Shown in pieces: positions 5,365-50,396 of a stretch of DNA of 64,000 nucleotides. Position 1 is the first letter of the stretch; each line of letters begins with the position of its first letter. The notes beneath the pieces were generated by a model. That model was not told where the DNA came from. It did no database searches and saw nothing but the letters and a program-made list of their open reading frames with translations. This stretch comes from Ostreococcus lucimarinus (lineage: Eukaryota): the NCBI GenBank assembly GCA_000092065.1, contig CP000591.1. One strand, 5' to 3'. The translations under genes were made by a program, and so were the position numbers.

Positions 5365-5411
5365 CATATAGCGGGTGTTTATATATCACAACATTCATCA
5401 AAATGTGCGTA

Positions 5412-32624: not shown

Positions 32625-33584
32625 TTACTCGGAACCCGGCACGAGGTGCGGCTCGAGCGCGGCGCGAGCGAACTCGGGCAGCACGAACGCCGCGGCGTGC
32701 ACTTGCGGGTTATAATAGCGCATCGGTTTCAGCGCGCTTTCATCGGCGGGTCGCGGAAATCGCTTGGCCTTGGTGAAATCCACCGTCGACCCGTCCGCCG
32801 CGGGTTTGCTGCACATCATGAAACCGATTTGTCCGCTCGGGTAAGTCGGTATCGTGGTGTACCCGTACGCCATGGACCCACCGACGAAAATACCCTTGCA
32901 CATCTTCGCCAAGTCCTCGATCAAATCGATGTGCAACCACACGCACTCGGCTTGCGTGCACACGACGCCGCCGGGCTTGAGCGCGCGGTGCATCTTTTTA
33001 AAGAACGCCTCCTCGAACAAAACGCTCGCCGGTCCGATCGGATCGCTCGAGTCGACGATGATGGCGTCGTACGTCCCCTCCTCCGCGTCCCCGACGTACT
33101 TGATCCCATCGCAAATATTCACCTCCACTCGCGCGTCGTCGAACCCCACCGCCATCGACGGCAAGAATTTCTTCGACATCTCCACCACCATCCCATCGAT
33201 CTCCGCGATCTCGATCCTTTCGATCGATCCGTGTCGCGTCACCTCCCTGAGCACGCCTCCATCGCCGCCACCGACGACGAGCACGCGTTTCGGTTCCTCG
33301 TTCAGCGCGCACAGCGGCAGGTGCGTTATCATCTCCTGGTACGCGAACTCGTCCCGCTCCGTCGCCTGAATCACCCCGTCCAGCACCAGCACGTTCCCGT
33401 ACGCCGAGTTTTTAAACACGTACACGTCTTGAAACTCGCTCCGTCCGCGGAACAGCTCCTCGTCGATCTTCAGCGACATCGCCTGGCCTTTCCACATTTC
33501 GCTCACCTCGCACAACCATCCCTCACCGCACGCGCCGATGCACTTGTCCGCGCTCTGCGGCGCGTCGTCGGCGTATTTATTCAT
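32625..33584 (-). CDS. SPDS: Spermidine/spermine synthase (aminopropyltransferase)
   Basis: GWLCE...[54 protein letters not shown]...[17 protein letters not shown]...[11 protein letters not shown] is the canonical spermidine-synthase core. ATG at 33584; the upstream part of the 34289 ORF is an artefact. Confidence 0.9.
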
Positions 33585-33756
33585 CCCTCGCGCGGTCGTC
33601 GCGCGGCGACGCGGCGCGCGGACGCGGAGCGCGCGGACGCGGAGCGCGCGGAGCGAAATCGCGTCTCGGAGTGGCGGCGCCGCGCCGCACAGCTCGACGC
33701 CGCGTCCGCGTCGCGTCGCGTCGCGCGCTCGCGTCGCGACGCGCACCGCGCGCGCG

Positions 33757-35883
33757 ATGGCGCTCACGACGTCGGTCGCGAGGGCGCGCGACGCGCGCGC
33801 GAGCGCCGATCGCGTCGTCGGTTTGGTCGGCGGTCTTCGCGTCGTCGTCGACGCGCTGCGCGAGCACGCCGCGGATGGACTCGCGACGAACGTCGCGCAC
33901 GTGCGCGAGGACGCGATGTACGTCGTGTTTCTCGCGGCGAGCGTGATCGGGTTCGGGACGGTGGCGAGCGGGGAGATGATGAGCCTGCGGCGACGACGGG
34001 ACAGGGCGCGCGCGGCGCTCAAGGAGTGCGCGACGATGTTGGATCTGAAGAGCAAAGAGACGAGCGGCGCGGCGGCGACGGCGGCGGTGGGGCGGAAAAC
34101 GCGCGACGCGGGACGGGGGAAGCGGACGCGCGAGATCGGGGTCGGGAAAGACTTTTGGAACGAGTTGGGATATCTGTTAAAGGTGGCGTTTCCCACGGCG
34201 GGGAGCCGAGGAGGGCAGTTGTTGGGCGCGCAGTTCACGCTGCTCGTCATGCGCACGCTGTTGACGGTCAGGGCGAATAAGGTGAACACGTTCTATTTGA
34301 CCAAGGCCATCTCGAGCGCGTCGTGGAAGTTTTGGGTGCGGTGGTTTTTCAACTTTGGCGGTTGGATGGCGAGCGGCGTGGTGGTGAACAGCGGGCTGCG
34401 ATACACCGAGAGTTTGATCACGATCGAACTCAGAGCGGCGTTGACGAAGAAGGCGCATAAGATGTACATGGAAAACAATAACTTTTACAAGACGGCGGTT
34501 TTGCGTCAAGGCGGGTTGGATAACGTCGATCAACGCATCGTGGCGGACATCGACGCCTTCGCCAAGGAGACGGCTTTCCTGTACGGGCACTCGTTCAAGC
34601 CCATTTTGGAGTTCACGCTGAGCTTGACCGAAGCCGCGAAGGAGTTGGGCTATTCTCGCCCGCTCGCGCTTTTCGCGTCACAAATCATCATCACCGGCGT
34701 TTTGCGATCCATCGCCCCGCGACTCGGACCGATGGTCGCTCGCGAAGCCGCGCTCGAGGGCGGTTTCCGCCACACGCACGCGCGCTTGATCGCTCACGCG
34801 GAGGAAATCGCCTTATTAGACGGGGGCAAACGCGAGATTGAGATTTTAGATGAAGGCTTGGATAATTTGGTCGTCACGCAGCGCTGGCATGCGCTGCAGC
34901 GTATTCGCAAGAGCGTCGCCGACAACGTATCCAAGTTCCAAGGCTTGCTCGTGGGCAGTATTTTCGTACACGTCCCGTTCATGATGAAGGCATCAGTGTC
35001 CGAAGGCGAGCGCATTTCATCCTTCCGAGCCACCGAGGAGCTCATGCTTCGATGCGGCGGCGCGTTCACCGAAGTGTTGCTTCTCGGCAAAAATCTCGAC
35101 GAACTCGCCGGATACACGCACCGGCTTTCGCAACTGTTCAAAACGTTGGATCTCGCGAGCAAGGAAGCGCGCGAAGACAAGGCTAAACTGGCTTCGGCAG
35201 GCGCTGACCACGCCGAAGGCTCGCCGATCGTGTTCGATAAAGTCACCGTAGGAGCGCCCGAGCCGGATGGCTCGCAACGCGTGTTGGTGAAGGACTTGAC
35301 GCTCGCCGTGGCGTCGGGTCAACACTTGTTGATAACTGGTCCGAATGGATGCGGAAAAACGTCATTGCTTCGCGTGTTGGCTGGATTATGGGCGCCCGTG
35401 TCCGGCACCGTCACCAGACCGTCTGGCGTATCCAGCATCATGTGGTTGCCGCAACGGCCGTACTTGTTGCAAGGATCGTTGCGCGATCAAGTCGTGTACC
35501 CGCGCGACGCGCGCACGGAGAAGATCGTCGACGCGCGCGTGAAGGAGTGTCTGATGATGGCTGGCCTGGCCAAATTCGTGGACGGCTCCATGAACGTTGG
35601 ATTAAACACGCGGCACTTGGAGTGGAACGATGTGTTGTCCGGCGGCGAGCGTCAGAGAATCGGTTTCGCCCGCCTTTACTATCACGCGCCAAAGTTTGCC
35701 ATTCTTGACGAAGCGACGAGCGCAATCAATCCAGACGAAGAGTCCAAGCTGTACGAACGTCTCATCGAAACCGACACCACCGTCGTGAGCATCGCGCACA
35801 GGCTCGAGCTTAGAAAATTCCACAAGTTGGAACTCAAAATCGCGGGCGACGGCGAAGGCGGTTTTCGAATCCTCAAACTTTAG
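33757..35883 (+). CDS. ABC transporter subfamily D half-transporter (peroxisomal ALDP/PMP70/PXA1-type)
   Basis: ABCD TMD signature ([27 protein letters not shown]...[13 protein letters not shown]) plus an NBD with Walker [17 protein letters not shown], signature [14 protein letters not shown] and Walker [15 protein letters not shown] at 33757. Confidence 0.9.
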
Positions 35884-35910
35884 ATTACTTGTGATAGCAC
35901 GTATATTACA

Positions 35911-36984
35911 TTAATGCGTCGACGTCGTCAAGTATGCGAACAACAGCATGGGCGCGCCGAAGAGGCCGACCATGGTGAGCATCGCCTGCGTGTTCAGCGC
36001 CTTGACTTCTTCTTCGTCGATTTCGCCCGCAAACTTTTCGTTCGCCATCTTGATCAGGTACTCGTCGTACGCGTCTAGTTTTGCGGCGTCCATGTAATCG
36101 AATAAGTCCGATTTCATCTTCTTGGAAGCCGTCGTCATCCCCCAAATCATTCGATCCGCTTGCTTGGACACGTTTCCGTACTGGTTTCCGATGCACCGAC
36201 GATACTGCTTCAACGCCTCATCTCGGCGCTGCAAGTTGTCCAGACAGATGGCGTAGTTGAAGATTATCCTCCCGCCCATCTCCGTCTTTTGCCCGATGCG
36301 ATCGAGCGCCCACGGCTCGAGCAAATCGAGCGCGTCTTGCATGTATCCTCGCTTCATCGCCTCGCCCGAACGCTCCAAAACCTCCCGCACCTCCGCGTAC
36401 TCCGCGTTCGTCAGCGTCATCCCCTGATCCTCGCGATATTTCGCCAATTTCTTCGCCACTCTCGCCCTTCGCGCCGCGATCGCCTCCTCGTCCTCCAACT
36501 CCTCCCGTTTAACGGTTCGTCCGCCGCCGTACGTCTTCGATATATCCGGCGGTCGCTCGAACACCCCCCACGTGCTCACCGACGGTTTATACACCGCGTC
36601 CTCCACGTCGTACCCCACCGCCTTCTCGTCCGCGTCGAACGGGTCGTAATCCCGGTCCCGCGTCAAGATGCGCACCGTCACCTCCCGTTTGCGCGTCGCC
36701 CCCGTCGCGCCGTCGCTCGCCGTCTCGCTCGCGAACGTCCCGTCCGTCGTCGACGCCTCCATCGCGTCGTCCCGATCGCCTCCGTCGCCCTCCGCGCGCG
36801 CGCGCTCCATCGCCGCCGCGTACTCGCGCGCCTTTTTCACGCGATCCTCCACCGACGCGCGCAGATCGATCCTCGCGTCCGCGTCCTCGCGCGGCGCCGC
36901 GCGCGCGCGAGAGCGACGCCGTCGCGCGACGCGCGTCGGCGCCCGCGGCCGCGCGACGCGCGCGACGCGCGCCGCGCGCGCCAT
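35911..36984 (-). CDS. Hypothetical protein with a C-terminal transmembrane anchor
   Basis: ATG verified at 36984. The R-rich presequence-like N-terminus is followed by about 250 aa of normal composition (VTVRILTRDRDYDPFD...RIIFNYAICLDNLQRRDEALKQYRRCIGNQYG...) and the terminal TM segment MLTMVGLFGAPMLLFAYL. No family recognised. Confidence 0.5.
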   Translation of the reverse strand: MARAARVARVARPRAPTRVARRRRSRARAAPREDADARIDLRASVEDRVKKAREYAAAMERARAEGDGGDRDDAMEASTTDGTFASETASDGATGATRKREVTVRILTRDRDYDPFDADEKAVGYDVEDAVYKPSVSTWGVFERPPDISKTYGGGRTVKREELEDEEAIAARRARVAKKLAKYREDQGMTLTNAEYAEVREVLERSGEAMKRGYMQDALDLLEPWALDRIGQKTEMGGRIIFNYAICLDNLQRRDEALKQYRRCIGNQYGNVSKQADRMIWGMTTASKKMKSDLFDYMDAAKLDAYDEYLIKMANEKFAGEIDEEEVKALNTQAMLTMVGLFGAPMLLFAYLTTSTH

Positions 36985-37138
36985 CGCGCGCGCCGCTCTC
37001 GCGCGATCGCGCGCGCGCGACCGCGCGACGTTCGCGTCTCGAGGTTCGACGTCGAAACCGACGCGAGGTTCGATCGCGCGCGCTCGAACCTCGCGATCGC
37101 GGGTTCGATCGCGCGCGCGCCGACGTCACTGCGCGTCG

Positions 37139-37432
37139 ATGCCCGCGACCGGGACGGCGTCGTCGCGCGACGAGATCGTGCCCCCGCGACGAGGCGCGCG
37201 AAATCCATGGGTGCTCGTCGGTGCGGGCGCCACGGCGGCGGTGTTGCTCGCGGGATTCGTCGCGTTCAGGGCTGGGGACGCGCGCGCGTCGCAGCGGATG
37301 ATGCGCGCGCGAGTGCTCGCGCAGGGCGCGACGGTGGCGCTGATGGTGGCGACGTCCGCGGGAGGACTGTCGAGCGCGACGTCTTGGACGCTCGCGCGTC
37401 CCGGCGCGGGCGGGACGGCGGGCGAGGGGTGA
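37139..37432 (+). CDS. HIG1 (hypoxia-induced gene 1 / Rcf1-like) domain protein, 97 aa
   Basis: NPWVLVGAGATAAVLLAGFVAFRAGDARASQRMMRARVLAQGATVALMV matches the HIG_1_N consensus (P..Ig...ta.vl..Gl..frrGn...sq.lMr.RvaaQg.Tv.alv). ATG at 37139, TGA at 37430-37432. Confidence 0.7.
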   Translation: MPATGTASSRDEIVPPRRGARNPWVLVGAGATAAVLLAGFVAFRAGDARASQRMMRARVLAQGATVALMVATSAGGLSSATSWTLARPGAGGTAGEG

Positions 37433-37434
37433 CG

Positions 37435-38424
37435 GACGCGCGGGCGAACGCGCGCGGGTTCGCGGCGAGCGCGACGACGACGCGCGGCGACGACGACGCG
37501 TCGACGTCGCGCGACGGAGGCGCGAGCGATGGTGGGGAGCGCGGGCGCGACGGTGACGCGAGAGACGCGCGCGCGAGGCGGGACGAGGAGTCGCGCGCGG
37601 TGCTGCGCGAACGCGCGCTGCGAGCGGCGTTGAAGCGCGTGCGCGAGCTGGGATGGACGGACGCCGCCGTCGACGCGGGATTGAGGGATTTGAATTTGTC
37701 GCCCGCGATGCGCGCGATCGTTCGCGGCGACGCGGGGGCGGGCGCGAGGGACTCGGGACCGGGCGACGGGCTCGCGGGGGAGTTGGCGGGATACTTTGAG
37801 GAGTGCGCGGACGCGGCGTTTCACGCGAAGGTCGTCGCCGAGGGCGAGACGCTGCGCGCGATGAAGTCGCGCGAGCGCGTGAAGTGGCTGATGCGCGCGC
37901 GTTTGGAGATGATCGAGTCCAAGCTCGATTCGTGGCCGCGCGCGCTCGCCGCGATGGCGACGCCGCGGTACGCGATGACGACGCTTCGGCGTCGCGCCGC
38001 GCTCGCGGATTTCATCGCCGACGCCGCGGACGTCGACGCCTTGGACGTGCTTCCGGATTCGTTGGATACGTTTCGTTGGCACGCCGAACGCGCCGCGATG
38101 CTCGCGCTGTACGCCGCCACCGAGTTACGCTTGTTGACGGATTCGAGCAAGGATCGTCGCAAGACGTGGGCCTTTCTCGACGCCCGCGTCGACGACATCG
38201 CGCGATCCCGCGTCGACGTCCTCGAGCTCAAGTCGTACATCGACGTCTTCGCGCGCGACGCCGACTTGACGACGCTCGGCGCGTCGTTCGCGAGCAAAGA
38301 CGCGCTCGCCGCGGCGTTCGCGCCCGTCGCCGACGTCTTCGCTCGCGCGTCTCGCGCCGTCTTCTCGACCCCTTCGCGCGACGCGTCCGAGCGCGACCCG
38401 CCGCGCGACTCGCCCGATCGATAG
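37435..38424 (+). CDS. COQ9: Ubiquinone biosynthesis protein COQ9; the start codon is unresolved and coordinates begin immediately after the HIG1 stop in the COQ9 frame
   Basis: RAVLRERALRAALKRVRELGWT...SWPRALAAMATP...TWAFLDARVDD is colinear with human COQ9 (ILAAALEFVPAHGWT...HWPRALSILMLP...TWRFLENRVND). The only upstream in-frame ATG (37205) overlaps the HIG1 CDS in another frame. Confidence 0.7.
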   Translation, partial: DARANARGFAASATTTRGDDDASTSRDGGASDGGERGRDGDARDARARRDEESRAVLRERALRAALKRVRELGWTDAAVDAGLRDLNLSPAMRAIVRGDAGAGARDSGPGDGLAGELAGYFEECADAAFHAKVVAEGETLRAMKSRERVKWLMRARLEMIESKLDSWPRALAAMATPRYAMTTLRRRAALADFIADAADVDALDVLPDSLDTFRWHAERAAMLALYAATELRLLTDSSKDRRKTWAFLDARVDDIARSRVDVLELKSYIDVFARDADLTTLGASFASKDALAAAFAPVADVFARASRAVFSTPSRDASERDPPRDSPDR

Positions 38425-38583
38425 TTTACCCGGTAGTCTTAATGCTCACGCGCGCGCCTTTAACCGACTTCGCGCGCGCTCGCCGTCGCGTTTTGTGTCG
38501 CTTCGGTCGCTCCACTCCCGGGTGTTTCACGCCCGAATCGTCGCGCCGCCGCGCGCCGCGCGTCACGCGCGCGCGCTCGAGCG

Positions 38584-41500
38584 ATGTCGTTCGACCTGCG
38601 CTGCGCCGTCCTGTGCTACGCCCTCGCCGGCGTCGCGCACGAGCTCGCGCACGTCCTCGCGCACGCCGCGCTCGCGCTCGCGAAGCGTCGCGGGTCGGTC
38701 GCCGTCTTCGACGCGTGCGCCGCGCTCGACGCGCGCGCGTCGCCGTCGTCGCTCGCGGCGACGCTCGCGCGCGCGCTCGGACGGTGGAGCGCGTTCGCGG
38801 ACGCGCTCGACGACGCGTCGTGCGCGAACGCGCGCGCGATCGTGCGATGGGCGGGCGCGCTGGCGAGCCTGGGCGCGGCGGCGGCGGCGACGACGCGAAC
38901 GCGAGGCGACAAAAGCGGAACGAGCGCGGCGCTGCGAGTCGCGTGCTGGGCGACGGTCCTGGACGCGGTGTGCACGGACGTGCTGGACGCGCTGCCGCGC
39001 GCGCGAGGGACGGTGCTGTGCGGGAACTTTGGGATTATTTTGATAAACGCGGCGTGGTGCGAGAGCGAACGCGGGAAGCGGGCGTTTGATTTGTTGGAGA
39101 AGATGGTGTACGTGACGATGATGCGAGGGGCGCAGAGCGGTGGAGTCGTGACGTTCGACGAGTGCCGTGAGAAGGCGCGAGGGGAGGGTGCGGCTGTGGC
39201 GCTGCGCGGCGCGAGAAGTCGCGTGGTGAACATGAAGCGCACGGATTTGAGCAAGCTCGTGCGAGCAAAGGCGGAACGCGACTGCGGAGGGGCGAAGATG
39301 GGTCGACAAAACGTCACGCGCATGATCGTCGGCCACACGCGGTTCGCGACGACGTCCAAGGCTACGTTTGACGGCACGCATCCGCATCAGTGGTCGCCGC
39401 CGCAGCAGTGTCTCGTGTACGGGCAAAAACAGAAAACGCCCGGGCCGACGCGCGTCGGCGTGGAGAATTACATCACGCACAACGGCGATTTCGACTTTTA
39501 CCAAATCAACAAAAACTGGTACGAGCTCGGTGAGATGCAGCGGTGGTTAGAAATCGCCACGGGACATCCCATGCCGAGCGTGGTGGATTCTGCCGCCATC
39601 GCTGGCGTTATCGATTTACTCAGAGCGCAGGGGAGCTTCGCGCTCGCCGCGAGATTTGCGGTGTGCGTGGGGCTGAACACGAGCGACGCGTCGAAGGACG
39701 CCCCCGTGCCAACGCTCGCGAAATTCGAAGAAATCGCGCGGTATTTTGAAAACGCTTTGGATGCGTCGCTGAGTGCAGGTAAACATACCGTTCGCGAGCT
39801 CGGCTTTCAGGCGAGCACGCGCGAGTTGCTCACGGAAAAGGTCGTATCCGCGCTCGAGGGCGAAGGCAAAGCAGCGATCGAGTGCATCAACTATTACATC
39901 GATGAAGAAATGGGATCGAGTCTACGACACTTTGTGCGATCGACGATCGATGCATTCTTCGACAACGATAGCTTATTCGTGACGAAGACATTTCTCGCCA
40001 ACGCGAAAGGTTCGTTTGGTTTGATGGTGACAAACTCTTTAGATGCGCATCGGCAGCTTTGCGTCGCCGCGCGGGGGCAAACTATAAGCATCGCGTTCTA
40101 CCCGAAGAAGGGTTTGATTTGTTACGGCTCTGAACAAGCCGCCGTTAAAGCGGGTTTGTCGATCCCGACACCAGGTGGTGACGTGTTGGCGAGCGTTCAC
40201 GGCGGTGAATTCGGCGACGACAACGCCGCCGTGCGTCTCGACTTGGACGATTTGAATGGCGAAATTTGTTTGTTAGATTGGGAAGACGGCGACGAACCCG
40301 CGGTGTCGTTCCCGAACTCGCACTTGGAGCAATACCCACTCATGGGTGGCAAAGTTACCGTCGTCCTCGCCGCTGAAGGTACATCTGGCGTGAGCAAGTC
40401 AACCATCGGAACGCCTGCGCAGAGTCTCGTCATGCGCAAGCCGAGCCTACACGTGGGCGTTAGCGTGGACAAGAAGCTGTTTCGCCGAATGACTCGACTC
40501 GAAGGGAACGACCTCATCAAGCCGCTTTTACCCGATCGAGAGGACTTGGTGCTGCACGATATTCACGATATTCCCAAAATTTTGCGAAACATTCAGGAAG
40601 ACTGGCAAAATCGCCCACAGGCCACGATTAGTCTCAATCGACTCACGGCTTGGAACCTTGCGCGTTGTTTGCGGCGACGTCTCGATCGCCGACTCAACAG
40701 TACGACAAAGTCATCGCGTTCAATAGATGTCGTCGTCACCGGTTGTGAAGTGTCGCTTTGGCTAGCCGAACAATTTGCGGCTGATTTACAGCAAGCGTTC
40801 CCCCGGCTGACGGTGAAAGCTGTGAGCTCGAATAAAATACTCGGTTTGTTCGGCCAAGACATTCCCATCCCAACAGTGGGATTCCCAGACTCAAAGAAGA
40901 ACGATGACTTTACGGACTCTGTCGTCATTGTCGTCAGTCACTCTGGCGGGACGTTTGCGCCACTCGCGACTTCGAATCTCCTCGTGAGCTCCACGAGCTC
41001 CATCTTCGTCGTCGCCAGCGAATGGGACACACAAATCGGCAAACAACTCAGAGCGATCAAGTCTGATGGGGCCTTCTGCAGCCGTATCTTTAGCACAGAT
41101 GTTGGCGTCCGACCAGCTGAGCCGTGTTCGGTGAGCGTTGCGGCGACGCAGCAACTTTTGACGCAAATTTTCATGCACATGTCACTCGTGATTCTCGGTA
41201 ACGCCGATTACCGCAAGTACGCGGGCGCCGTGGTTACGAAGCACGACTTGGCGGAACTCGAAAGGTGCAATCAAATGAACATCACCGCGCTGGAAGAAAT
41301 AGTGGGAGTGAAAGCGACGGGCGAAAAGGTCGACTCGTCGACGGAGCGTAGTCTTCGAGCGCAAGGCGACGAGTGGTCCGATCACGTTCTCGAAGGCGTC
41401 AAGGGGTGGATGATGTCGTTTGCATACATCGTCGGCACCGTAACGGCGGGATACCCGCTCATCACCGGCGTTGCCGCCGCTTGTGGACTCGCGGCGACTT

Positions 41501-42900
41501 GGGCGTTTTACCTCACACGATTCTTCGACGCGTTGATTTACGTGTTTCTTCCTCAAATCAACATAACCATTATTCGTTTGGTGCAAGGACGAAACTTGCG
41601 TCATCGCATGACGGGTCGAACGGTTGTCATCGGCGACGTTCCGTGGGTCGCACAGGCTGCAGATGCGTTTCTGTCAAAGATTTTTGCATGCTCGTACTCT
41701 GCCGCTGGGTTGAACGTTCTCAGTGGTAATCCAAACGATCATCTCGTGCACCGACACACGCACCGCGTCGTTCGCGGCGCATTGCTCGTGGTCGGTCGTC
41801 CCGACGGTAGGCTCGCCGCGCTAACGTCCGCTGAGGCGACGACATCGCTCTCGCTCGCCCAAGCAAGTTCTATCCAAAGTTACGGCGGAACGTGCGAATC
41901 GATCACGATCGGGCACTCACCGTATAAGCTTCCACTATCAAAGAATGGTATCTTCCTCAAACGACACCGCCCGATGTACTTGTGCGAGAAGCTCGTGCTC
42001 GAGCGCGAGGGGGAAAAGAGTTTAGACGGTCGCTCGCCCGGCTCCTTGCTCGGCGTGTACAACAAGTATCACGAGGAAGGGGCGGAACTCTCTGTACATT
42101 CGCTTTCGCGTCGAAACGCGGTGCAAGTTCTCACAGCTTCGAGGATTAAGGCGGATAGACAGAAGGGTAATTTGCGCTCGGTGTTCGACGAAATCGACGT
42201 CAACCGCGACGGCAAACTATGCCTCGCTGAGTTCACGCAAGCGTACAAGAAAGTGGACGAATCGCTCACAGACGCACAAATAGCGAAGCTTTTCCGCGAT
42301 GCAGACGTTGACAACAGCGGTACATTGGACTACGATGAGTTTTGCGAAGTCATGAACCTTCCCGAAATGGACATGTTGAACATTCTCGAGGCAGATGCTC
42401 GAAACGAGGAAGGTTTGCTCATGGTGGAGCCGTCGCACGAAGATTATTTCGGGCAATCCATTCGACGAAGCGCACCGAAAAAGATCAAGGCGTACACTCT
42501 GGTGGAGTCTCAAGAGTTCAGCATGAGCTTGTACGAATCACGAATCGCGTCTTTGCAGCGCTTCGTCTCCATGACGGTGATGTTTCACCAAATGGGTGAC
42601 CGGGCTCAAAAGTTTTGGCGAAACGTCTCTTTCGGATATCTGGGATATCGCATGGATCGCACGCACAGTATCATGCGTATCGCCACCACGGCCTCACCCG
42701 TGAGCGGCGCTGAAGTGCGCGACCGGCGTCATTTTATCGCCCTCGTCACCGCGTTCAACAACGCGCTCGGCGTCATCGACAACTCCGGCCACATTCTTCT
42801 CTCTCGAAGACGCACGGAAAGCTACCGCCTCACATCGCGGCAAAAGTCCGCCGCGAGGCTTTCGCGTCAGAGCTCCGTCGCTAGCGCCACTGGCGCGTGA
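38584..42900 (+). CDS. Large multidomain protein: class-II glutamine amidotransferase (Ntn) domain, two SIS domains (GlmS/GFAT-like architecture), an EF-hand pair and a C-terminal extension
   Basis: GATase II: LCGNFGIIL...LLEKMVYVTMMRGAQSGGVVTFD...VGHTRFATTSKATFDGTHPHQW...YITHNGDFDFY. SIS: IDVVVTGCEVSLWLAEQF...VVIVVSHSGGTFAPLATS, with a second SIS-like block. EF-hands: DEIDVNRDGKLCLAEF and DADVDNSGTLDYDEF. ATG verified at 38584. The catalytic Cys lies about 150 aa from the N-terminus. Confidence 0.8.
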   Translation: MSFDLRCAVLCYALAGVAHELAHVLAHAALALAKRRGSVAVFDACAALDARASPSSLAATLARALGRWSAFADALDDASCANARAIVRWAGALASLGAAAAATTRTRGDKSGTSAALRVACWATVLDAVCTDVLDALPRARGTVLCGNFGIILINAAWCESERGKRAFDLLEKMVYVTMMRGAQSGGVVTFDECREKARGEGAAVALRGARSRVVNMKRTDLSKLVRAKAERDCGGAKMGRQNVTRMIVGHTRFATTSKATFDGTHPHQWSPPQQCLVYGQKQKTPGPTRVGVENYITHNGDFDFYQINKNWYELGEMQRWLEIATGHPMPSVVDSAAIAGVIDLLRAQGSFALAARFAVCVGLNTSDASKDAPVPTLAKFEEIARYFENALDASLSAGKHTVRELGFQASTRELLTEKVVSALEGEGKAAIECINYYIDEEMGSSLRHFVRSTIDAFFDNDSLFVTKTFLANAKGSFGLMVTNSLDAHRQLCVAARGQTISIAFYPKKGLICYGSEQAAVKAGLSIPTPGGDVLASVHGGEFGDDNAAVRLDLDDLNGEICLLDWEDGDEPAVSFPNSHLEQYPLMGGKVTVVLAAEGTSGVSKSTIGTPAQSLVMRKPSLHVGVSVDKKLFRRMTRLEGNDLIKPLLPDREDLVLHDIHDIPKILRNIQEDWQNRPQATISLNRLTAWNLARCLRRRLDRRLNSTTKSSRSIDVVVTGCEVSLWLAEQFAADLQQAFPRLTVKAVSSNKILGLFGQDIPIPTVGFPDSKKNDDFTDSVVIVVSHSGGTFAPLATSNLLVSSTSSIFVVASEWDTQIGKQLRAIKSDGAFCSRIFSTDVGVRPAEPCSVSVAATQQLLTQIFMHMSLVILGNADYRKYAGAVVTKHDLAELERCNQMNITALEEIVGVKATGEKVDSSTERSLRAQGDEWSDHVLEGVKGWMMSFAYIVGTVTAGYPLITGVAAACGLAATWAFYLTRFFDALIYVFLPQINITIIRLVQGRNLRHRMTGRTVVIGDVPWVAQAADAFLSKIFACSYSAAGLNVLSGNPNDHLVHRHTHRVVRGALLVVGRPDGRLAALTSAEATTSLSLAQASSIQSYGGTCESITIGHSPYKLPLSKNGIFLKRHRPMYLCEKLVLEREGEKSLDGRSPGSLLGVYNKYHEEGAELSVHSLSRRNAVQVLTASRIKADRQKGNLRSVFDEIDVNRDGKLCLAEFTQAYKKVDESLTDAQIAKLFRDADVDNSGTLDYDEFCEVMNLPEMDMLNILEADARNEEGLLMVEPSHEDYFGQSIRRSAPKKIKAYTLVESQEFSMSLYESRIASLQRFVSMTVMFHQMGDRAQKFWRNVSFGYLGYRMDRTHSIMRIATTASPVSGAEVRDRRHFIALVTAFNNALGVIDNSGHILLSRRRTESYRLTSRQKSAARLSRQSSVASATGA

Positions 42901-42990: not shown

Positions 42991-44370
42991 ATGCGCCGCC
43001 GCGCCCTCGCGCGCGCGCTCGCGCGCTGGTGCGACGCGCCGTTGTCGTCGTCTCGTCCGTCGCCTCGCGCGCGAACGATCGCCCGCGCGTCGTCGACGAA
43101 GCCAAACGACGACGACGAAAACTTTGTCCCGAGCGCCAAAGCGCGCGCCTTCATGCGCGCGTTAAACCTTCGCGACGACGATCTCACGACCGCTCGCGAC
43201 GAGGTGCGACCGAGGGACAAAGCTTACGTCGATCGGCGTCGCGTGCGCGCGGAGGGAGGACGCGGCGGCGGCGGGGTGGCGTCGTTCGCGATGGATGGCG
43301 GTTCGCGGCGGCGACGCGGCGCCGACGGCGGCGACGGCGGTAAGGGCGGCGACGTCGTTCTCGTGGCATGCGCGCGGACGAAAGGGCTGGGAGACGTGAA
43401 GAATTTATTGCGAGGCGCGACGGGAGGTGCGGGAGGGGCGCAGGGACGGATCGGGAGTCGAGGCGCGGACGCGCGCGCGCGCGTGCCGCTAGGGACCATC
43501 GTGTGGCGCGAACTCGCGGACGGCGACGACGACGGCGGCGGCGGCGCGATCGATTTCACGCACTGGGGCACGGATTCACCGGTATCGTCGACGGCGGACG
43601 CGTCGGAAAGCGACGATGAATCGCGAGTGAATGAGAATGGTTGGACGCGGCCGCGCGGGCTCAGTAGAGGCGAATGGCTCGTCGTCGCCGACTTGACGCG
43701 CGACGGACAAACGTGCGTGCTCGCCCGAGGCGGGAAGGGAGGTAAAGGGAATAAACGCATGCCCGTTGGACGCGAAGCCGGGACGCGCGAGCCGGGCGCT
43801 CCGGGTGAAGAAGGTAAATTCGTGTTGGAGTTGAAAACCGTCGCCGACGTCGGGCTGGTGGGACTGCCGAACGCGGGAAAAAGCACGCTCTTGCGCGCTT
43901 TGTCCAACGCGACGCCGCGCGTCGGGTCTTACGCGTTCACCACGATGCAACCACAACTTGGCGCGGTATCGGCAACGGACGGCGAGACGATCACGCTGGC
44001 AGACATTCCCGGCTTGATCAAAGGGGCACACGAAAACAAAGGGTTGGGGCATAATTTCTTGCGACACGTCGAGCGATGCGAGGCGTTGGCGTACGTGGTA
44101 GATTTATCGAGCGGCGACGGCGTCAAACCTTGGGATGCGTTGGATATCCTCAAGCGCGAGTTGGAGGAGTACTTACCAGGACTTTCTAAACGCCCTGGGT
44201 TCATCGTCGCGACGAAGACGGATTTGCCGCACACGGCGCGGACGTTGAAGGCGCTTCGAGCGCGCACGGCGCCTACGCCCGTCTTTGCTGTGTCAGCGGC
44301 GAATCGCGAAGGCACGGACGAGGTTCTTCGCGTGTTTGAGAACGAAATCATAGGAAATAGACGAGTGTAG
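42991..44370 (+). CDS. OBG: Obg/CgtA-family GTPase (organellar, with presequence)
   Basis: Obg glycine-rich N-terminal fold (GGRGGGGVASFAMDGGSRRRRGADGGDGGKGGDVVLV) and the G domain with G1 GLVGLPNAGKSTLL, G2 T and G3 ADIPGLI. ATG verified at 42991. Confidence 0.9.
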   Translation: MRRRALARALARWCDAPLSSSRPSPRARTIARASSTKPNDDDENFVPSAKARAFMRALNLRDDDLTTARDEVRPRDKAYVDRRRVRAEGGRGGGGVASFAMDGGSRRRRGADGGDGGKGGDVVLVACARTKGLGDVKNLLRGATGGAGGAQGRIGSRGADARARVPLGTIVWRELADGDDDGGGGAIDFTHWGTDSPVSSTADASESDDESRVNENGWTRPRGLSRGEWLVVADLTRDGQTCVLARGGKGGKGNKRMPVGREAGTREPGAPGEEGKFVLELKTVADVGLVGLPNAGKSTLLRALSNATPRVGSYAFTTMQPQLGAVSATDGETITLADIPGLIKGAHENKGLGHNFLRHVERCEALAYVVDLSSGDGVKPWDALDILKRELEEYLPGLSKRPGFIVATKTDLPHTARTLKALRARTAPTPVFAVSAANREGTDEVLRVFENEIIGNRRV

Positions 44371-44421
44371 CGATTTAGCGACAGATGTAGATAACTAACA
44401 AGAACTAGAGGTGCAGTAAGT

Positions 44422-45798
44422 TTACGCCGATTGCCGCGTTGGACGCGCGCTTCGCGCATTGGGCGCGCGCTCCTTTTTCGACGACGATTTCCGAGCGGGC
44501 GCGCGCGCCTTACTCTCACGAGTACTCCCTTCCAATGGCGAAAGCTCAGCATCTCGTTCTCGCTCTGCCGCCGCGTTCAGCTTGCGTTGCCACGAAATCA
44601 AGTACGCCGCCGTCGTCGTGACGGCGACGATCCACGCGATGACTACGTGACGAGGCCAAGGAGCGGTGAATTTACCGCGACCGTTTTTCACGACGACCAA
44701 AAATTCAACGATGAGCACCGCGAGCGCTAACCACGCGTTCGGGCCGAGCTTGGCCTCCCCCACGTCCGGGGTTTCGATGAAGACGTAATATTCGCGAATC
44801 GCGATGTTAGACATGGCGAACCACAACCCGAGACGGTACAAGCAAAAGTTGTGCGACGGCGGCACGTGCAAGACGAACTTCATGAAGAACAGGTTCAAGT
44901 CAAACACCAACCCACAAAACACGAGAAACGCGCACTTCAAGAACCGACTGGGCGATCCGGTGGGACGCCACGTGTAGTGATCGACGCTCGCCGGCGTGAG
45001 CGACGTCAAAACCGTCTTCAGCGCTCCGCGCACCGGCGAACGCGGCGGCTCCTTCGCCGCCGCCGATCGAGACGACGCCTTCTTCCCGCTCCAATCGTGA
45101 AATTTCCCACGCATGAACTTCACGAGCCACATTCCCGCACAGATGCCCAACAAGTTACAAATCATCACGTCCCACACCCACATGTCCCACCAGCACTCGT
45201 TAAAATTGGGTTGCCAGTGCTCAAACGTCAGCTCGCACAGCTCGAACGCGATTGAATACGCCCACAACAACCCCCAATCCCTGATCGCCACCGCCTTACC
45301 GAACCATCCCAGCACGTGAGCCACGGTAAACTCATCGAACAGCGTTTCGTACACGATTCCAAACGATCCGCTTCGATGTCCCGGCGTGTACACGCGGCAA
45401 TCGCCGCCGTAGCTCCTCGTCGGCAGCGGCGTCCCCAAGTCGTCCCAAAAGAATTTCAGCATCTTTTGCGCGTCCGCGGGCGTTTGAAACAGCAGCACTA
45501 TCAACGCCAGAAGGTACATCGTGAACGCCGCGTGCACCACCTTCCACACCGCCGCGTGCGGTCGCGTCATGTGCGTCGCCGGTCCCTGCAGCGCGCCGTA
45601 CGCCAGGTACGCGCCCAGCGCGCCCGTCGCGCCTCGACGGATCCCGTCCTCCGTCGTCCATCGCGCGTCGTTCGCGTCGTTCGCGAACGCGTGCGTGGCG
45701 ACCGCCAGCGCGACCGCGCCGCACGCGAGCATCGTGAGCGTGTGCGGCGAGCGCGCGAGTCGCGCGACCGTCGACGTGCTATTCTCGGCCCATCGCAT
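44422..45798 (-). CDS. PSS: Phosphatidylserine synthase, base-exchange type (PTDSS1/2-like)
   Basis: The PSS family block YSIAFELCELTFEHWQPNFNECWWDMWVWDVMICNLLGICAGMW matches the PTDSS signature (ELTF.H.LPNF.ECWWD), and the protein is polytopic. ATG at 45798; the upstream 285 codons of the 46653 ORF are an artefact. Confidence 0.85.
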   Translation of the reverse strand: MRWAENSTSTVARLARSPHTLTMLACGAVALAVATHAFANDANDARWTTEDGIRRGATGALGAYLAYGALQGPATHMTRPHAAVWKVVHAAFTMYLLALIVLLFQTPADAQKMLKFFWDDLGTPLPTRSYGGDCRVYTPGHRSGSFGIVYETLFDEFTVAHVLGWFGKAVAIRDWGLLWAYSIAFELCELTFEHWQPNFNECWWDMWVWDVMICNLLGICAGMWLVKFMRGKFHDWSGKKASSRSAAAKEPPRSPVRGALKTVLTSLTPASVDHYTWRPTGSPSRFLKCAFLVFCGLVFDLNLFFMKFVLHVPPSHNFCLYRLGLWFAMSNIAIREYYVFIETPDVGEAKLGPNAWLALAVLIVEFLVVVKNGRGKFTAPWPRHVVIAWIVAVTTTAAYLISWQRKLNAAAERERDAELSPLEGSTRESKARAPARKSSSKKERAPNARSARPTRQSA

Positions 45799-46015
45799 CT
45801 TCGCGCGCGCGTCGCGTCGAGCGCGTCGCGCGCCCGGCGCGGCGCGCGGTGCGTTCGCGCGCGGCGCGCGGTGCGTTCGCGCGCGCGGTGCGCGTCGAGC
45901 GTTCGCGCGCGTCGGCCGTCGCGCGTCTCGAAGTGAAGATTTGTCGTCGACGGTGCATCGCGTCCACGCGCGCGCGAACGCGACCGCCACACGCGCGCGC
46001 GCGCGCGACGACGCG

Positions 46016-48295
46016 ATGCACCGCGCGCGCGACGACGCGCGCGACGACGCGCGCGACGACGGCGACGACGCGCGCGACGACGCGCGCGACGGCGCGAACG
46101 ATTGGATGCGAGCGATTGAAAATCTCCAACCGACGACGCCGCGCGGCTGCGCCGCGTGCGCGGTGCTGGTCGCGATCGCGCTCAAGGCGACGACGGCGAA
46201 CGAGTCGTCGTTCGCGCTCGGCGCGCTCGTCGGGTGCGCGGGAACGCTCGCGGCGCAGGTGGCGGCGGTGACGCGCGCGGTGCGAGCGAACGCGGCGGCG
46301 ACGGCGGCGCGAGAGGTCGCGGACGCGGCGGCGCGGGAGGAGTTCGATCGCGGGCGCGACGACGACGCGAGAAACGGGGACGAGGGGCGGAACGCGGGCG
46401 TCGGGGCGACGACGAGCGTCGGGGAGGCGCCGCATTCGGGATGGATCGTGGTCGCGCGAGCGAACGCGAAGAGCGCGAAGGGCGCGGCGGCGAGCGGCGA
46501 GAAGAAGTTTGCGCGATTGACGCGCGATGGGAGGTTGCAGCTCGCGAATGAGCGCGGTGGAGAGGTGGTGGACGTGATCGATCTGTGCGGGTGCGATGTG
46601 GCGTTGACGAAGTTTCCGGGATTGGAAAAGCCGACGGAGTTGCGATGGCACAAGTCGACGCCGATGGTGGTGCGTCACGGCGATCGCGCGGTGTATCGAT
46701 CGATGAAGACGGTGTGGCTGTTTGCGTTGTCGTCACCGGCAAAAGAGGCGTGGTTCGTGGCGCTGATGACGTGCGTGGAGCGTTTGCGCGCGGAGAGTGG
46801 CGGCGCCGAAGCGGACGCGCGCGCGCTCGACCGCATGCGCGTCGAGGCGGATGATTTCGCAAAGTTTACGCAAGAGACGAAGAAATACAAGGAAGAATCC
46901 GCGCGGCGAGACGCACACGCGCAAGGCACGCACTCTGCGGGCGCGGGTACGGCTGGGGCGACGATAAACGCTCTTGGATCGAGGCTGCTATTCGACATGT
47001 TTCGCGACGAGCGTTGGCAACTCGAGCAAAAGGAAAAGTTGGTCAACAAGATGAATAACGCTCCGGGCACGCCCAAGTTTGTCGGTACGTTTGAGATCAC
47101 GCATATCGACTTCGGATCAACGGTGCCGCACATCATTAGCGCTCGCGTGCCGAGCTTTAGCTCGTCGAGCGCGCCCTGGGATGGCGCCTCTATGCCGGGG
47201 CGCGGCTTCTCGCACGCGCTCGAACTCGACGTCGAGTACGTTGGTCGGGCGACAATGACCGTGCAGACGCGCGTGGATTTGTCCAAGTACGCGCAAGACA
47301 TGGAGAGTGAGGCGAATAACGTGTCGAACGCGGAGTCCGTCGACGAAATCGCGCGGAGTTTTTCGAGTATAAAAAAGGCGGCGGCTCGCGAGGCGGCGAG
47401 AGTTGTCACCTCGCTTTCTGATACACTTAGCGCGACGCCGTTGCGCTTCACGCTAACCCTGAAGAAGTGTCAGGGCGTCATGCGTCTGTGGATTCCACCG
47501 CCCCCGGGCGATCGTTTGTGGTGGGGGTTGATCAAGGAGCCGGACATCGATCTTGAAATCATCCCCGAGCTCGGCGCCGCGGCGATCTCTCATGAGGGTA
47601 TCGCCTCGCGTGTCTCGCAATTCCTTCGCAACCTATTCGTTGCCGACATGCACTCCCAACTTCTGCTGCCGAACTGCGTCGCTGAGCCTTGGAAGGAGCT
47701 TCGACCGTTCGTAAGCGCGATGGAGTTGTCGCTCGCCGAGGCGGCGACGGAGGAGTTCTCGGCCTTGCAGCCGCCTTCGCCTTCGCCCTCACCAATCAAC
47801 ACTGAACGTGAACGTCCAGCTGAACGTGACCGTCCAGCAGTATCGAACGTGACGACGCCAGCGTCGACTCCCAGACCCTCGTTCGACACCCCCACGTCAC
47901 CACCGCCCGAGCAAGTGATGGAGAGTCCACCTGTGTCGCCGAAAGCGTCCGTCGCGCCCATCGCCGCCGTGAGCGCGTCGCTCCCATCCTCCCCCACCGC
48001 CACCATCACCGGTCTCGCGACGACGACATCTACCGAGCCGCCACCCAAACGTCCAGCATCCGAAGACATCCAAGCCAAGCCAACGTCGTCTTTCTTCGCC
48101 CAGGCGAAATCGTTCACGCAAAAGCTCGAACGTTCCTTCGGCGACGACTTCAAGGATTTCACCGCCGCCGTCAAAGACGCCGGCGTCGCCGGCGGATTGA
48201 AGCACGTCTCCAAGAACATCGAAAAAGTTATCGCGCCGACGTCAAGCAAAGATCCCGCGCAACCATCCTCTTCGAATGTGTTAAAGAACGATTAG
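46016..48295 (+). CDS. PH-like plus SMP (synaptotagmin-like mitochondrial lipid-binding) domain lipid-transfer protein (TEX2/Nvj2-like)
   Basis: PH-like: GWIVVARANAKS...KKFARLTRDGRLQLANERGGEVVDVIDLCGCDV...RAVYRSMKTVWLFALSSPAKEAWFVAL. SMP: INALGSRLLFDMFRDERWQLEQKEKLVNKMN...PKFVGTFEITHIDFGSTVPHI...LELDVEYVG. ATG at 46016; a (DDAR)n repeat follows at the N-terminus. Confidence 0.65.
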   Translation: MHRARDDARDDARDDGDDARDDARDGANDWMRAIENLQPTTPRGCAACAVLVAIALKATTANESSFALGALVGCAGTLAAQVAAVTRAVRANAAATAAREVADAAAREEFDRGRDDDARNGDEGRNAGVGATTSVGEAPHSGWIVVARANAKSAKGAAASGEKKFARLTRDGRLQLANERGGEVVDVIDLCGCDVALTKFPGLEKPTELRWHKSTPMVVRHGDRAVYRSMKTVWLFALSSPAKEAWFVALMTCVERLRAESGGAEADARALDRMRVEADDFAKFTQETKKYKEESARRDAHAQGTHSAGAGTAGATINALGSRLLFDMFRDERWQLEQKEKLVNKMNNAPGTPKFVGTFEITHIDFGSTVPHIISARVPSFSSSSAPWDGASMPGRGFSHALELDVEYVGRATMTVQTRVDLSKYAQDMESEANNVSNAESVDEIARSFSSIKKAAAREAARVVTSLSDTLSATPLRFTLTLKKCQGVMRLWIPPPPGDRLWWGLIKEPDIDLEIIPELGAAAISHEGIASRVSQFLRNLFVADMHSQLLLPNCVAEPWKELRPFVSAMELSLAEAATEEFSALQPPSPSPSPINTERERPAERDRPAVSNVTTPASTPRPSFDTPTSPPPEQVMESPPVSPKASVAPIAAVSASLPSSPTATITGLATTTSTEPPPKRPASEDIQAKPTSSFFAQAKSFTQKLERSFGDDFKDFTAAVKDAGVAGGLKHVSKNIEKVIAPTSSKDPAQPSSSNVLKND
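46031..46095. repeat. Coding microsatellite (GACGACGCGCGC)n encoding (DDAR)n
   Basis: gacgacgcgcgcgacgacgcgcgcgacgacggcgacgacgcgcgcgacgacgcgcgcgac; the same 12-mer repeat recurs at 56143-56180 in an unrelated gene. Confidence 0.6.
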
Positions 48296-48477
48296 CCCGT
48301 CGCCGCGCTCAAAAATTTGAAATTTCAAACCAGCTGTCGCAACTTCACGTCGACGTCCCCACACCGCGACGCTCGTCGCGCGTCCGACGGACGACGACGC
48401 GAACCGCGCGCAAACCCTGCGCGTGCTGCGCCCCCGGCTCGTCGTTCAATCGCTTCGCCTGCGCGCTCGCCGACGCC

Positions 48478-49494
48478 ATGGCTGCGGCGAAACGAAAACC
48501 ATCCGCGAGCGCCGCGTCGATGAAATCCTTCGACGACGACGTGCCGAGCGAGCGCGACGCGCTGAAAACGTGGAACGACATGGACGACGCCGCGCTCGAG
48601 GTCGAGATCGCGAAATATCGCGACGCGGTGGCGCGGTTGAAGGCGGAGATCGTCGCGAAGGATGGCGATCGCGCGATCGATGGGGTGGACTGGTTCGAGT
48701 ACGAACGAGACGCGACGACGACGGTCGACGGCGCCGATGGCGGCGCCGCGGGAGGTGAGAACGACGACGAGGATGAAGAGCTTGGAAATATCGATGACAT
48801 CGATCCGCGGGAGTGGATGGTGCCGAAACAGTGCATCCCGGTGCACGCAAACGTGACGACGTACGACTGGAAGCCGATGTACGAACACGAACAGTTCGAC
48901 GTCATCATGATGGACCCGCCGTGGCAGTTGGCCACGGCGAATCCGACGCGCGGGGTGAGTTTGGGATACTCGCAATTGACGGATCAGCACATCGCAGACT
49001 TGCCGTTGCCGCAATTGCAAAAGAATGGGTTGTTGTTCGTGTGGGTGATCAACGCGAAGTATCAGTGGTGCCTCAATCAGTTTAAAAAATGGGGCTACGA
49101 ATTCGTGGACGAGATCGTGTGGGTGAAGGTGACGAAAACGAGACGACTGGCGAAGTCACACGGCTTTTATTTGCAGCACGCGAAGGAAGTGTGCCTGGTC
49201 GCCCGTCGAGGAGACGCGCCGCCGGGATTGAAGAACAGAGCCATCGGGAGCGATATCATCTTCGCTCCTCGTCGCGGGCAATCGCAAAAGCCGACGGAGA
49301 TTTACGAGCTCATCGAAGAGCTCGTGCCGAACGGGCGGTACTTGGAGATTTTTGCGCGTAAGAACAACCTGCGCGACTATTGGGTGTCCGTCGGGAACGA
49401 GGTCACGGGGACTGGTTTGCCTCCGGACGACGTCAAGGCGTTCGAAGAGCGCGGGCACATTCCGTCCGCGAAATACGGCGCGTCTAATCGATAG
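48478..49494 (+). CDS. METTL3: MT-A70 family N6-adenosine methyltransferase, METTL3-like catalytic subunit (minimal form, 338 aa)
   Basis: FDVIMMDPPWQ (the DPPW catalytic motif), LLFVWVINAKYQW...WGYEFVDEIVWVKVTKT...HAKEVCLVARRG and QSQKPTEIYELIEELVPNGRYLEIFARKNN (human QSQKPDEIYGMIERLSPGTRKIELFGRPHN). ATG verified at 48478. Confidence 0.8.
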   Translation: MAAAKRKPSASAASMKSFDDDVPSERDALKTWNDMDDAALEVEIAKYRDAVARLKAEIVAKDGDRAIDGVDWFEYERDATTTVDGADGGAAGGENDDEDEELGNIDDIDPREWMVPKQCIPVHANVTTYDWKPMYEHEQFDVIMMDPPWQLATANPTRGVSLGYSQLTDQHIADLPLPQLQKNGLLFVWVINAKYQWCLNQFKKWGYEFVDEIVWVKVTKTRRLAKSHGFYLQHAKEVCLVARRGDAPPGLKNRAIGSDIIFAPRRGQSQKPTEIYELIEELVPNGRYLEIFARKNNLRDYWVSVGNEVTGTGLPPDDVKAFEERGHIPSAKYGASNR

Positions 49495-49563
49495 TCGCGT
49501 CTTCTTAGCTCTCATTGTGATTGGTGATTTCCTGTGTGACTTAAATAACTACTGAAAAGTGAC

Positions 49564-50277
49564 TCAGAACCGCGTCACGTCCCAAAGCACCCCCCGCGTC
49601 GTCGTCGCGAGCACGGTGATAACCAACGGCACCACGATCGCCACCGCCAACCCCACGGTGAGTTCATTCCAGAACCCTTTACCCACGAATTGATCGCCCT
49701 CCCAATTTTCCGTGTACAAATCCGGCCGATCTTCGATCCTTTTCCCGTTCGCGTCTCTCGATCGCGTCGGCGTTTCGTTCTTCGCCTTGGCTCTCGCCTC
49801 GCGCGCCTCTTCCTCCGCCCTCTCCTCCTCGCTCATCGCCGCGGCGACCATCTCCTGCGTCACCGTTATTTCCTTCTCCAGCACGAACGTGATCTCTTCC
49901 GCTCGCGTCGACCGTATGGCATCCTTCACGAACGCCAAGCGTTCCGTATCCGAAATTATCCAAAGCTTGTCCGCGTCCCCCACCGGCGACGTCAACGCGC
50001 GCAGTCTTTGTCCCGGCACCACCCCCGCGCGCTCGCAATCGCTCTCGCGCGCGACGCCAGCGACGAATATCGCTCGTTCGTTGTCGCCGACGACGAGGGC
50101 ATCCCATTTGATGCACTTTCGCGCTTCTTCCGTCGTCATCCTGATGGTGTACTCGGTGCTCTGGTCCGTCGAGTCGAGGAGTTGTGCGCGGCGCGCGTGA
50201 TGCGCGCGGCGCGCGCGCGACGCGAGCGCGCGCGACATCGGCGCGTTCGCGCGATGGGCGCGCGCGGAGGCGAGCAT
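49564..50277 (-). CDS. Hypothetical tail-anchored protein with a PDZ-like domain and an organellar-type presequence
   Basis: ATG verified at 50277. YTIRMTTEEARKCIKWDALVVGDNERAIFVAGVARESDCERAGVVPGQRLRAL is a PDZ-like fold. It is followed by an acidic/K-rich stretch and the terminal TM segment LTVGLAVAIVVPLVITVLA. Confidence 0.45.
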   Translation of the reverse strand: MLASARAHRANAPMSRALASRARRAHHARRAQLLDSTDQSTEYTIRMTTEEARKCIKWDALVVGDNERAIFVAGVARESDCERAGVVPGQRLRALTSPVGDADKLWIISDTERLAFVKDAIRSTRAEEITFVLEKEITVTQEMVAAAMSEEERAEEEAREARAKAKNETPTRSRDANGKRIEDRPDLYTENWEGDQFVGKGFWNELTVGLAVAIVVPLVITVLATTTRGVLWDVTRF

Positions 50278-50396
50278 GACGGCGGAAAGACGCGCGGCGC
50301 GGCGTTGTGAGGGCTCTATCCACTCGGCGAGCGGGACGACGAAGCCGAGCGTCGTCGCTCGATTGAAAATAAGCTATGGGCTACCGCTCCGACGCG

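Follow-up and report, generated by a model that had tools for sequence, protein, structure and literature searches.

A single gene of composite architecture

The analysis of a 64,000-nucleotide stretch of DNA from Ostreococcus lucimarinus (contig CP000591.1; hereafter the window) reveals an uninterrupted open reading frame (ORF) with an ATG start at 38584..42900 on the plus strand, the strand of all features of the gene given below, which encodes a single polypeptide of 1438 amino acids (aa). A helical N-terminal module, a class-II glutaminase domain, two sugar isomerase (SIS) domains, a pair of EF-hands and a conserved C-terminal tail follow one another along this chain, which is classed as a GlmS-type amidotransferase with a maturation principle that may be new. 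Past an in-frame stop located ~125 nucleotides (nt) upstream, translation can first start at the ATG at 38584; gene calls of 1438 aa for exactly this protein are on record for several contigs, and the ORF at 38584-42900 is a real, single gene. A preliminary description, made from the letters of the sequence, had placed the motif LCGNFGIIL, whose cysteine would be the catalytic nucleophile, about 150 aa into the chain with no ATG adjoining it. The motif was confirmed with its cysteine at residue 146, and the ORF translation contains not one further methionine between M1 and Cys146.

A total of 292 homologues were detected, with identities of 40-74%, in prasinophytes (Bathycoccus, Pycnococcus), many diatoms, a pelagophyte and dinoflagellates of the Symbiodiniaceae, the overall identity between lineages being 40-50%. 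Most of these homologues are full length. Database names of the members are “hypothetical”, “EF-hand domain-containing” or, for some in UniRef, “Glutamine amidotransferase type-2 domain-containing”, and a full-text literature search found no published description of the family, in agreement with the earlier impression that the architecture is undescribed. Unless another total is given, conservation was counted over 89 sequences by using an alignment of 88 homologues (A1), and dedicated alignments were made for the N-domain (A2) and for the C-terminal tail (A3).

No true prokaryotic member was found when 185,579 bacterial and archaeal species genomes were scanned with two peptide patterns, a scan that returned one match, the contig JAIYDP010000129.1 (locus L001, 1-9362), which is labelled as a Verrucomicrobiaceae metagenome-assembled genome (MAG). 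The family member on this contig is split over frames, with GRPDGR at ~6243 and RIATTAAPVS at ~6865 both lying outside the frame of the main ORF (2689-6300), and the adjacent glutamine synthetase is likewise fragmented. Given this intron-like splitting, the contig probably comes from a eukaryote and was wrongly assigned to a bacterial MAG. Members of the family appear to occur only in eukaryotic algae and protists.

A GlmS-like core recognized by fold

The GlmS/GFAT-like core of a GATase II domain followed by two SIS domains, as proposed in the preliminary description, was a motif-level perception and therefore needed an independent test. Sequence models did not detect it: searches of the whole protein and of six sub-regions against Pfam and NCBIfam returned the EF-hand alone, with no match to GATase_2/6/7 or SIS at E<=10, and the glutaminase and SIS regions, used as phmmer queries, matched none of the PDB sequences, while the result of a full-family profile against PDB was swamped by EF-hand matches. 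With the GlmS models TIGR01135 and PRK00331, whose cut-offs are 418 and 381 bits, the protein scored 10.3 and 11.8, so that the protein represents a very distant branch and not a GFAT orthologue. The only sequence-level link to GlmS is a 20-residue stretch of the Q-loop, GHTRFATTSKATFDGTHPH, which resembles AHTRWATHGEPSEVNAHPH of GlmS. The family profile was further aligned by hhalign with E. coli GlmS, whose sequence was verified against 4amv_A; the local mode returned the Q-loop only, and the global mode aligned the first SIS domain sensibly, pairing VIVVSHSGGTFAPLA with GlmS MITLSQSGETADTLA, and failed in the glutaminase and second SIS regions, for which reason residues there were mapped by motif only.

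By fold, in contrast, the core is evident. An AlphaFold2 model of aa 1-1180, built with A1, reached a mean predicted local distance difference test score (pLDDT) of 84.4 and a predicted template modeling (pTM) score of 0.75, and a Foldseek search of PDB matched it to full-length E. coli GlmS (2j6h_A; E 1.3e-13, 1033 columns, TM 0.66 normalised to target). Matches to ~25 chains of human GFAT-1 were also obtained, followed by SIS-only proteins, namely AgaS-like isomerases and GlmS isomerase domains on their own; identities were 9-13% throughout. The full-length structures 2j6h, 1jxa and 6r4e aligned over 1030-1080 columns, with the GATase-II domain preceding the two SIS domains, and aa 146-~530 of the model superpose on the GlmS/GFAT glutaminase domains, which have the four-layer alpha-beta-beta-alpha fold of N-terminal nucleophile (Ntn) hydrolases. 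A class-II glutaminase and two SIS domains in GlmS order are confirmed by this predicted structure. The likeness to GlmS/GFAT (EC 2.6.1.16) thus stands for the fold and the glutaminase-then-two-SIS order (E 1e-13 to 1e-10, TM 0.57-0.66 normalised to target), whereas the divergence, at ~10% identity, is far greater than the preliminary wording implied.

The class-II (Ntn) glutaminase domain (aa 146-~530, 39019..40173) is supported by the Foldseek matches to GlmS and GFAT-1, the hhalign Q-loop and a series of invariant motifs, namely C146-G-N-F-G, R181-G182, G250-H-T-R-F-A-T256, H299-N-G-D302 and D335-S336. These are the equivalents of GlmS Cys1, Arg26-Gly27, the His71-Thr76 Q-loop with Arg73, His97-Asn98-Gly99 and Asp123; R181, R253, N300, G301 and D335 follow one another in the GlmS order (~Arg26, Arg73, Asn98, Gly99 and Asp123) and are invariant in 89/89 sequences, the equivalence being by hhalign alignment for the Q-loop and by motif for the remainder. 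The roles of these residues in GlmS are well established, His97-Asn98-Gly99 forming the oxyanion hole. Because every catalytic equivalent is invariant in a family whose lineages share 40-50% identity, a catalytically dead pseudo-enzyme, which the preliminary description had offered as one option, is unlikely. Within the domain, a helical insertion of ~110 aa (aa ~360-473, window 39660-40000), comprising six helices of high pLDDT, has no counterpart in the 240-residue glutaminase domain of GlmS.

A conserved HExxH...D module ahead of the catalytic cysteine

The first 136 residues (38584..38991) form a helical module, with helices at aa 5-35, 54-66, 78-105 and 112-133, that is likened here to site-2 proteases (S2P). 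Helix 1 carries HELAH (38638..38652), a putative zinc-binding and catalytic HExxH motif, and D132 (38977..38979), at the C-terminal end of helix 4, is a candidate third zinc ligand comparable to the Asp of the S2P “LDG” motif; both are present in 89/89 sequences. In A1, no variation is seen at H19, E20, H23, S95 and D132, and conservation reaches at least 90% at G16, G91 and T124; D132 is preceded by the conserved T124, E/D127, A128 and T/S131, and R67 is also invariant in A2. The leader, taken earlier for a featureless pro-sequence, is instead a conserved HExxH...D helical domain. An exhaustive HMMER search with the N-domain profile returned 435 matches, and all those inspected were fragments of the same family, with no stand-alone module or other architecture among them.

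The module is joined to the glutaminase by a flexible linker (aa 134-145, 38983..39018) of low pLDDT and variable length, which ends in a putative cleavage site between T-V-L and Cys146. In the full model, residues 137-146 have a pLDDT <50 and are the only low-confidence part within the first 250 residues, and the linker from the invariant Asp to the Cys spans 11-47 aa (median 20) with no conserved composition. Counted leftward from the Cys, P1 is F, L or Y in 89/105 sequences and P2 F or L in 81/105, with T, V, I, L or W at P3. A model of the isolated domain contains only two beta segments, both of low pLDDT, one at 68-70 in the loop that follows R67 and the HExxH helix and the other at 143-145, that is, at P3-P1; as the only two in that model, they must pair with each other. 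S2Ps are thought to bind their substrates by strand addition at the loop after the HExxH helix.

The leader was further examined across the family. CGNFG is present in 105 of 121 sequences, the other sequences being N-terminally truncated, and HExxH lies 82-230 residues upstream of it in 92 of these 105. The tiny first exon spliced directly onto the Cys codon that the preliminary description had considered is refuted by these sequences, the leader being contiguous with CGNFG in all 92, including six complete ORFs from MMETSP transcriptomes (P0031, P0037, P0045, P0062, P0068 and P0111); since these transcript ORFs carry both HExxH and CGNFG, the leader belongs to the mature mRNA. The 13 sequences with CGNFG and no HExxH are all 5'-truncated or mis-modelled, and they retain the downstream motifs LGR, H-x-G-W-x-x-S and E-A-x-x-T-D. 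No family member starts Met-Cys. In Pycnococcus, the “missing” HExxH helix, FGALHEMAHVLAA, is encoded in a different frame ~120 nt before the annotated start. There, in Pycnococcus provasolii (CP150564.1; L004 ~9790-9950, annotated start 10001), SYVAFGALHEMAHVLAALL can be read just upstream of the annotated protein P0108, which lacks the helix, and the public gene model thus misses the first exon.

SIS domains, hydrophobic hairpin, EF-hand pair and tail

The first SIS domain (aa ~655-910, 40546..41313), identified by Foldseek, hhalign and conservation, carries a conserved phosphate-loop-like S785-H-S-G-G-T790 of the SxSGxT type, which hhalign pairs with S347-Q-S-G-E-T352 of GlmS. The second SIS domain, together with a segment resembling the C-tail of GlmS (aa 1005-1140, 41596..42003; Foldseek and conservation), is invariant at K1032, D1052, H1053, H1056, T1059, R1061, GRPDGRL, R1129 and E1135, with H1060 conserved in 88/89 sequences, and D1052-H1053-x-x-H1056-R-x-T1059-H-R1061 constitutes a new invariant cluster. 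By motif alignment only, GlmS Lys485 corresponds to the invariant K1032, His504 to H1053 or H1056, and Glu488 to the near-invariant Ala1035, while the Lys603 region corresponds to R1129-P-x-[FY]-L-C-E1135, Lys603 itself falling on the invariant E1135 or on the variable K/R/Q1136. These correspondences suggest that a phospho-ligand site has been kept and the chemistry altered. With the phosphate loop kept and Glu488 and Lys603 apparently replaced, the product is probably not formed via the ketose-aldose mechanism of GlmS.

A hydrophobic helical hairpin (aa 941-1000, 41404..41583) stands at the start of the second SIS domain, recognized from hydropathy and from the AlphaFold2 helices of this region (919-955, 959-966, 972-987 and 989-1001). 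It has the highest family-averaged hydropathy of the protein (1.65 and 1.39), no counterpart was seen on inspection of the GlmS sequence, and it is a possible second membrane anchor.

The EF-hand pair (aa 1197-1257, 42172..42354) matches Pfam EF-hand_7 with E=2.6e-16 (60 bits against a cut-off of 30) and, in PDB, matches calmodulin and calcium-dependent protein kinases (CDPKs). Its two loops, DVNRDGKLCLAE (aa 1205-1216, 42196-42231) and DVDNSGTLDYDE (aa 1241-1252, 42304-42339), are canonical, as previously described, with the Ca2+ ligand positions present (D/N/D or D/D/S at positions 1/3/5, G6, a hydrophobic residue at 8 and E12). Of 82 scorable homologues, 47 have two canonical loops, 23 have a single one and 10 lack them, and a 30%-identical freshwater relative lacks the EF-hands and keeps everything else; given this absence from some members, the pair is predicted to serve as an accessory Ca2+ input. 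A canonical EF-hand pair and a catalytic domain in one chain are also features of CDPKs and calmodulin-fused enzymes; the algal protein differs in having a single pair, placed between a SIS domain and a tail with no known relative, and to our knowledge no amidotransferase is EF-hand-regulated.

The tail of ~200 aa reported earlier after the EF-hand pair is likewise present. Its conserved part (aa ~1284-1380, 42433..42723) shows 55% mean column identity and 27 invariant columns in A3 and carries the ultra-conserved YRMDRTHSIMRIATTASPVSG (aa 1355-1375, 42646-42708), which is the most conserved segment of the whole family, the EF-hand pair standing between the GlmS-equivalent C-terminus and this segment. 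The tail is kept in members without EF-hands, and its profile had no match in PDB or Pfam. In GlmS, the C-terminal tail closes the sugar site, and we speculate that the algal DRTHSIMRIATTASPVSG tail may dock onto the SIS domains under Ca2+ control. Set against GlmS and GFAT, which start Met-Cys, the algal protein has a 145-aa structured leader before the Cys and adds the glutaminase insert, the hairpin in the second SIS domain, the EF-hand pair and a conserved tail of 180 aa.

Maturation of Cys146 and competing explanations

Catalysis by class-II glutaminases depends on the free alpha-amine of Cys1. The algal enzyme should hence be inactive until the bond before Cys146 is cut, and with a 145-residue domain ahead of this Cys the chain as translated should be a zymogen without activity. 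The propeptide of B. subtilis PurF and the presequence of glutamate synthase (GltS) are removable leaders of this kind, the catalytic Cys being exposed by proteolysis. Both are short and unstructured, whereas the leader of the algal protein forms a helical domain, conserved and at least 110 aa long, that carries its own metalloprotease-like motif. Class-II amidotransferases are Ntn hydrolases in which few residues usually precede the N-terminal Cys and are then removed, and leader-bearing members (MEROPS C44) share with the algal protein a catalytic Cys that is not residue 2 and needs proteolytic exposure (PMC9140057). Proteolytic maturation is our working hypothesis for Cys146.

The reading that we favor, tentatively and with somewhat less than even confidence, is that of a membrane-anchored zymogen of a divergent GlmS/GFAT-like amidotransferase, in which an S2P-like module cuts its own chain and the EF-hands confer a Ca2+ response. 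The N-terminal module would be a minimal S2P-like zinc metalloprotease that cuts before Cys146 in cis or across a dimer, with the P3-P1 residues adding a beta-strand to the loop that follows the HExxH helix. After the cut, the glutaminase would hand ammonia to a SIS site holding a phosphorylated acceptor, the hairpin at aa 941-1000 would keep the processed enzyme at the membrane, and the EF-hand pair, a module lost in some lineages, would make the activity Ca2+-responsive. An invariant HExxH...D tethered 11-47 residues from two hydrophobic residues and a Cys is most simply accounted for if the module cuts that junction. The most specific version of this reading, a protease-armed zymogen whose built-in metalloprotease cuts between [FL][FLY] and Cys, whose amidotransferase activity is timed by Ca2+ binding to the EF-hands and whose product is an amino compound, is possible but rather doubtful. 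If true, it would set two precedents, an Ntn enzyme that owes its maturation to a dedicated built-in metalloprotease and an S2P-like domain to which an obligate cis substrate is fused, in a family found in major groups of marine phytoplankton (prasinophytes, diatoms, pelagophytes and dinoflagellates).

The kinship with S2P/M50 peptidases (MjS2P, RseP and SpoIVFB) is drawn from the shared HExxH in a hydrophobic helix and the Asp in a later helix, and one structure-comparison method together with these motifs weakly suggests an S2P-like fold for this conserved helical domain. The assignment is weak by sequence and by Foldseek: there is no significant sequence match to S2P/M50, a Foldseek comparison of the N-module with S2P gave no match, and PF02163 (peptidase M50) matched 3 of 34 N-domains with a best E of 0.13. 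The module also differs in the context of its Asp, which is T/S-D-L/F instead of LDG, and in consisting of just the minimal three-helix core, which lacks PDZ and CBS domains and is fused to its presumed substrate; we know of no S2P fused to an Ntn enzyme.

The main rival to maturation by the metalloprotease in cis is classical Ntn autoproteolysis, in which Cys146 would itself attack the preceding peptide bond, the N-module would be a membrane anchor or an inhibitory pro-domain, and the metal of HExxH...D would be structural or regulatory. Class-II glutamine amidotransferases and other Ntn hydrolases are reported to cut off their own leaders autocatalytically (PMC9140057), the glutaminase active site of the algal protein is fully conserved, and the weakness of the S2P assignment by Foldseek and Pfam counts in favor of this route. 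Self-cutting by the module remains the simplest account of the motif tethered to the junction, and we consider autoproteolysis unlikely, if a serious contender.

It is also conceivable that the protein is an S2P-type intramembrane protease acting on other substrates, with the GlmS-like and EF-hand part serving as a large cytosolic sensor of glutamine, sugar-phosphate and Ca2+ by which proteolysis is gated, a role played in other S2Ps by PDZ or CBS domains, and with Cys146 never becoming N-terminal. A sensor needs no nucleophile or oxyanion-hole residues, yet C146, N300 and G301 are invariant; the conserved hydrophobic P2-P1 directly before the Cys points to a processing site, and the N-module is far smaller than any characterised S2P, which makes this alternative improbable. 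Lower still is the standing of a pseudo-enzyme or scaffold that is never cleaved, in which case a membrane protein that binds Ca2+ would have kept a GlmS-like shape with no amidotransferase chemistry. The failure of the GATase_2/6/7, SIS and GlmS sequence models to recognize the protein and the seeming replacement of the isomerase residues Glu488 and Lys603 (by Ala1035 and Glu1135 in the motif alignment) would fit such a scaffold, but the invariance of the glutaminase equivalents and of the SIS phosphate loop between such distant lineages is the pattern of an active enzyme, and we regard the scaffold as very unlikely.

A gene-model artefact, be it a missed short first exon or two genes joined by a missed stop as the preliminary description had envisaged, can practically be dismissed, for nothing was found to support it apart from the oddity of one homologue (P0001) whose N-terminus is 48 aa longer by a peptide that lies in another frame in the window, and against it stand the continuity of the ORF with its upstream in-frame stop, the same continuous architecture in >100 sequences, transcript-derived complete ORFs among them, and the 5' truncation of the leaderless models. 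P0001, a 90%-cluster representative of 1486 aa, starts 48 codons earlier (MLTRAPL..., region 38440-38583). The gene's own frame has stops upstream in the window, and the majority of the members of the P0001 cluster are called at 1438 aa; being off-frame here, the extension reflects either an indel or variation between strains, or else a gene call drawn too far upstream.

Glutamine amidotransferases are nitrogen entry points into biosynthesis, and this family spans diatoms, dinoflagellates (coral symbionts included), pelagophytes and picoprasinophytes with a core that standard domain models miss. Were the protein an active, Ca2+-tuned and membrane-bound amidotransferase, it would represent an unrecognised nitrogen-transfer step, possibly within a novel amino-sugar or amino-metabolite pathway. 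A leader that works as an S2P-like protease would, moreover, provide a minimal, genetically tractable model of an intramembrane-type metalloprotease fused to its substrate and a new route for Ntn enzyme maturation.

Genomic context

The probably mis-binned contig JAIYDP010000129.1 also carries a type III glutamine synthetase (GSIII_N + Gln-synt_C-ter; 69-2420, minus strand), which is divergent from the amidotransferase-like gene (from 2689, plus strand) at a distance of ~270 bp, a glutamine maker beside a glutamine user. A conserved gene neighbourhood was considered and rejected, as the adjacency to glutamine synthetase does not recur in the Cylindrotheca, pelagophyte and Pycnococcus genomes. 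In Pelagophyceae sp. CCMP2097 (L003 15778-19385), a GFO/IDH/MocA-type sugar oxidoreductase and an acetyl-CoA transporter (Acatn) are encoded directly downstream of the family member, and genes for a nucleotide-sugar transporter and G6PD are found within 10 kb of the Cylindrotheca member (L002). These neighbours of the pelagophyte and Cylindrotheca genes are suggestive of sugar metabolism, though the neighbourhoods are not conserved.

In the window, the gene is surrounded (33538-38424 and 42991-55034) by tightly packed, ordinary eukaryotic housekeeping genes, which include an ABCD-type ABC half-transporter, COQ9, an Obg GTPase, a SURP/RRM protein and an MA3-domain protein, along with a phosphatidylserine synthase on the minus strand; the immediate upstream neighbour is the COQ9-like gene, which ends at 38424. 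These neighbours are overlapped by many long ORFs on the opposite strand or in other frames, which arise from the ~63% GC content and do not represent genes.

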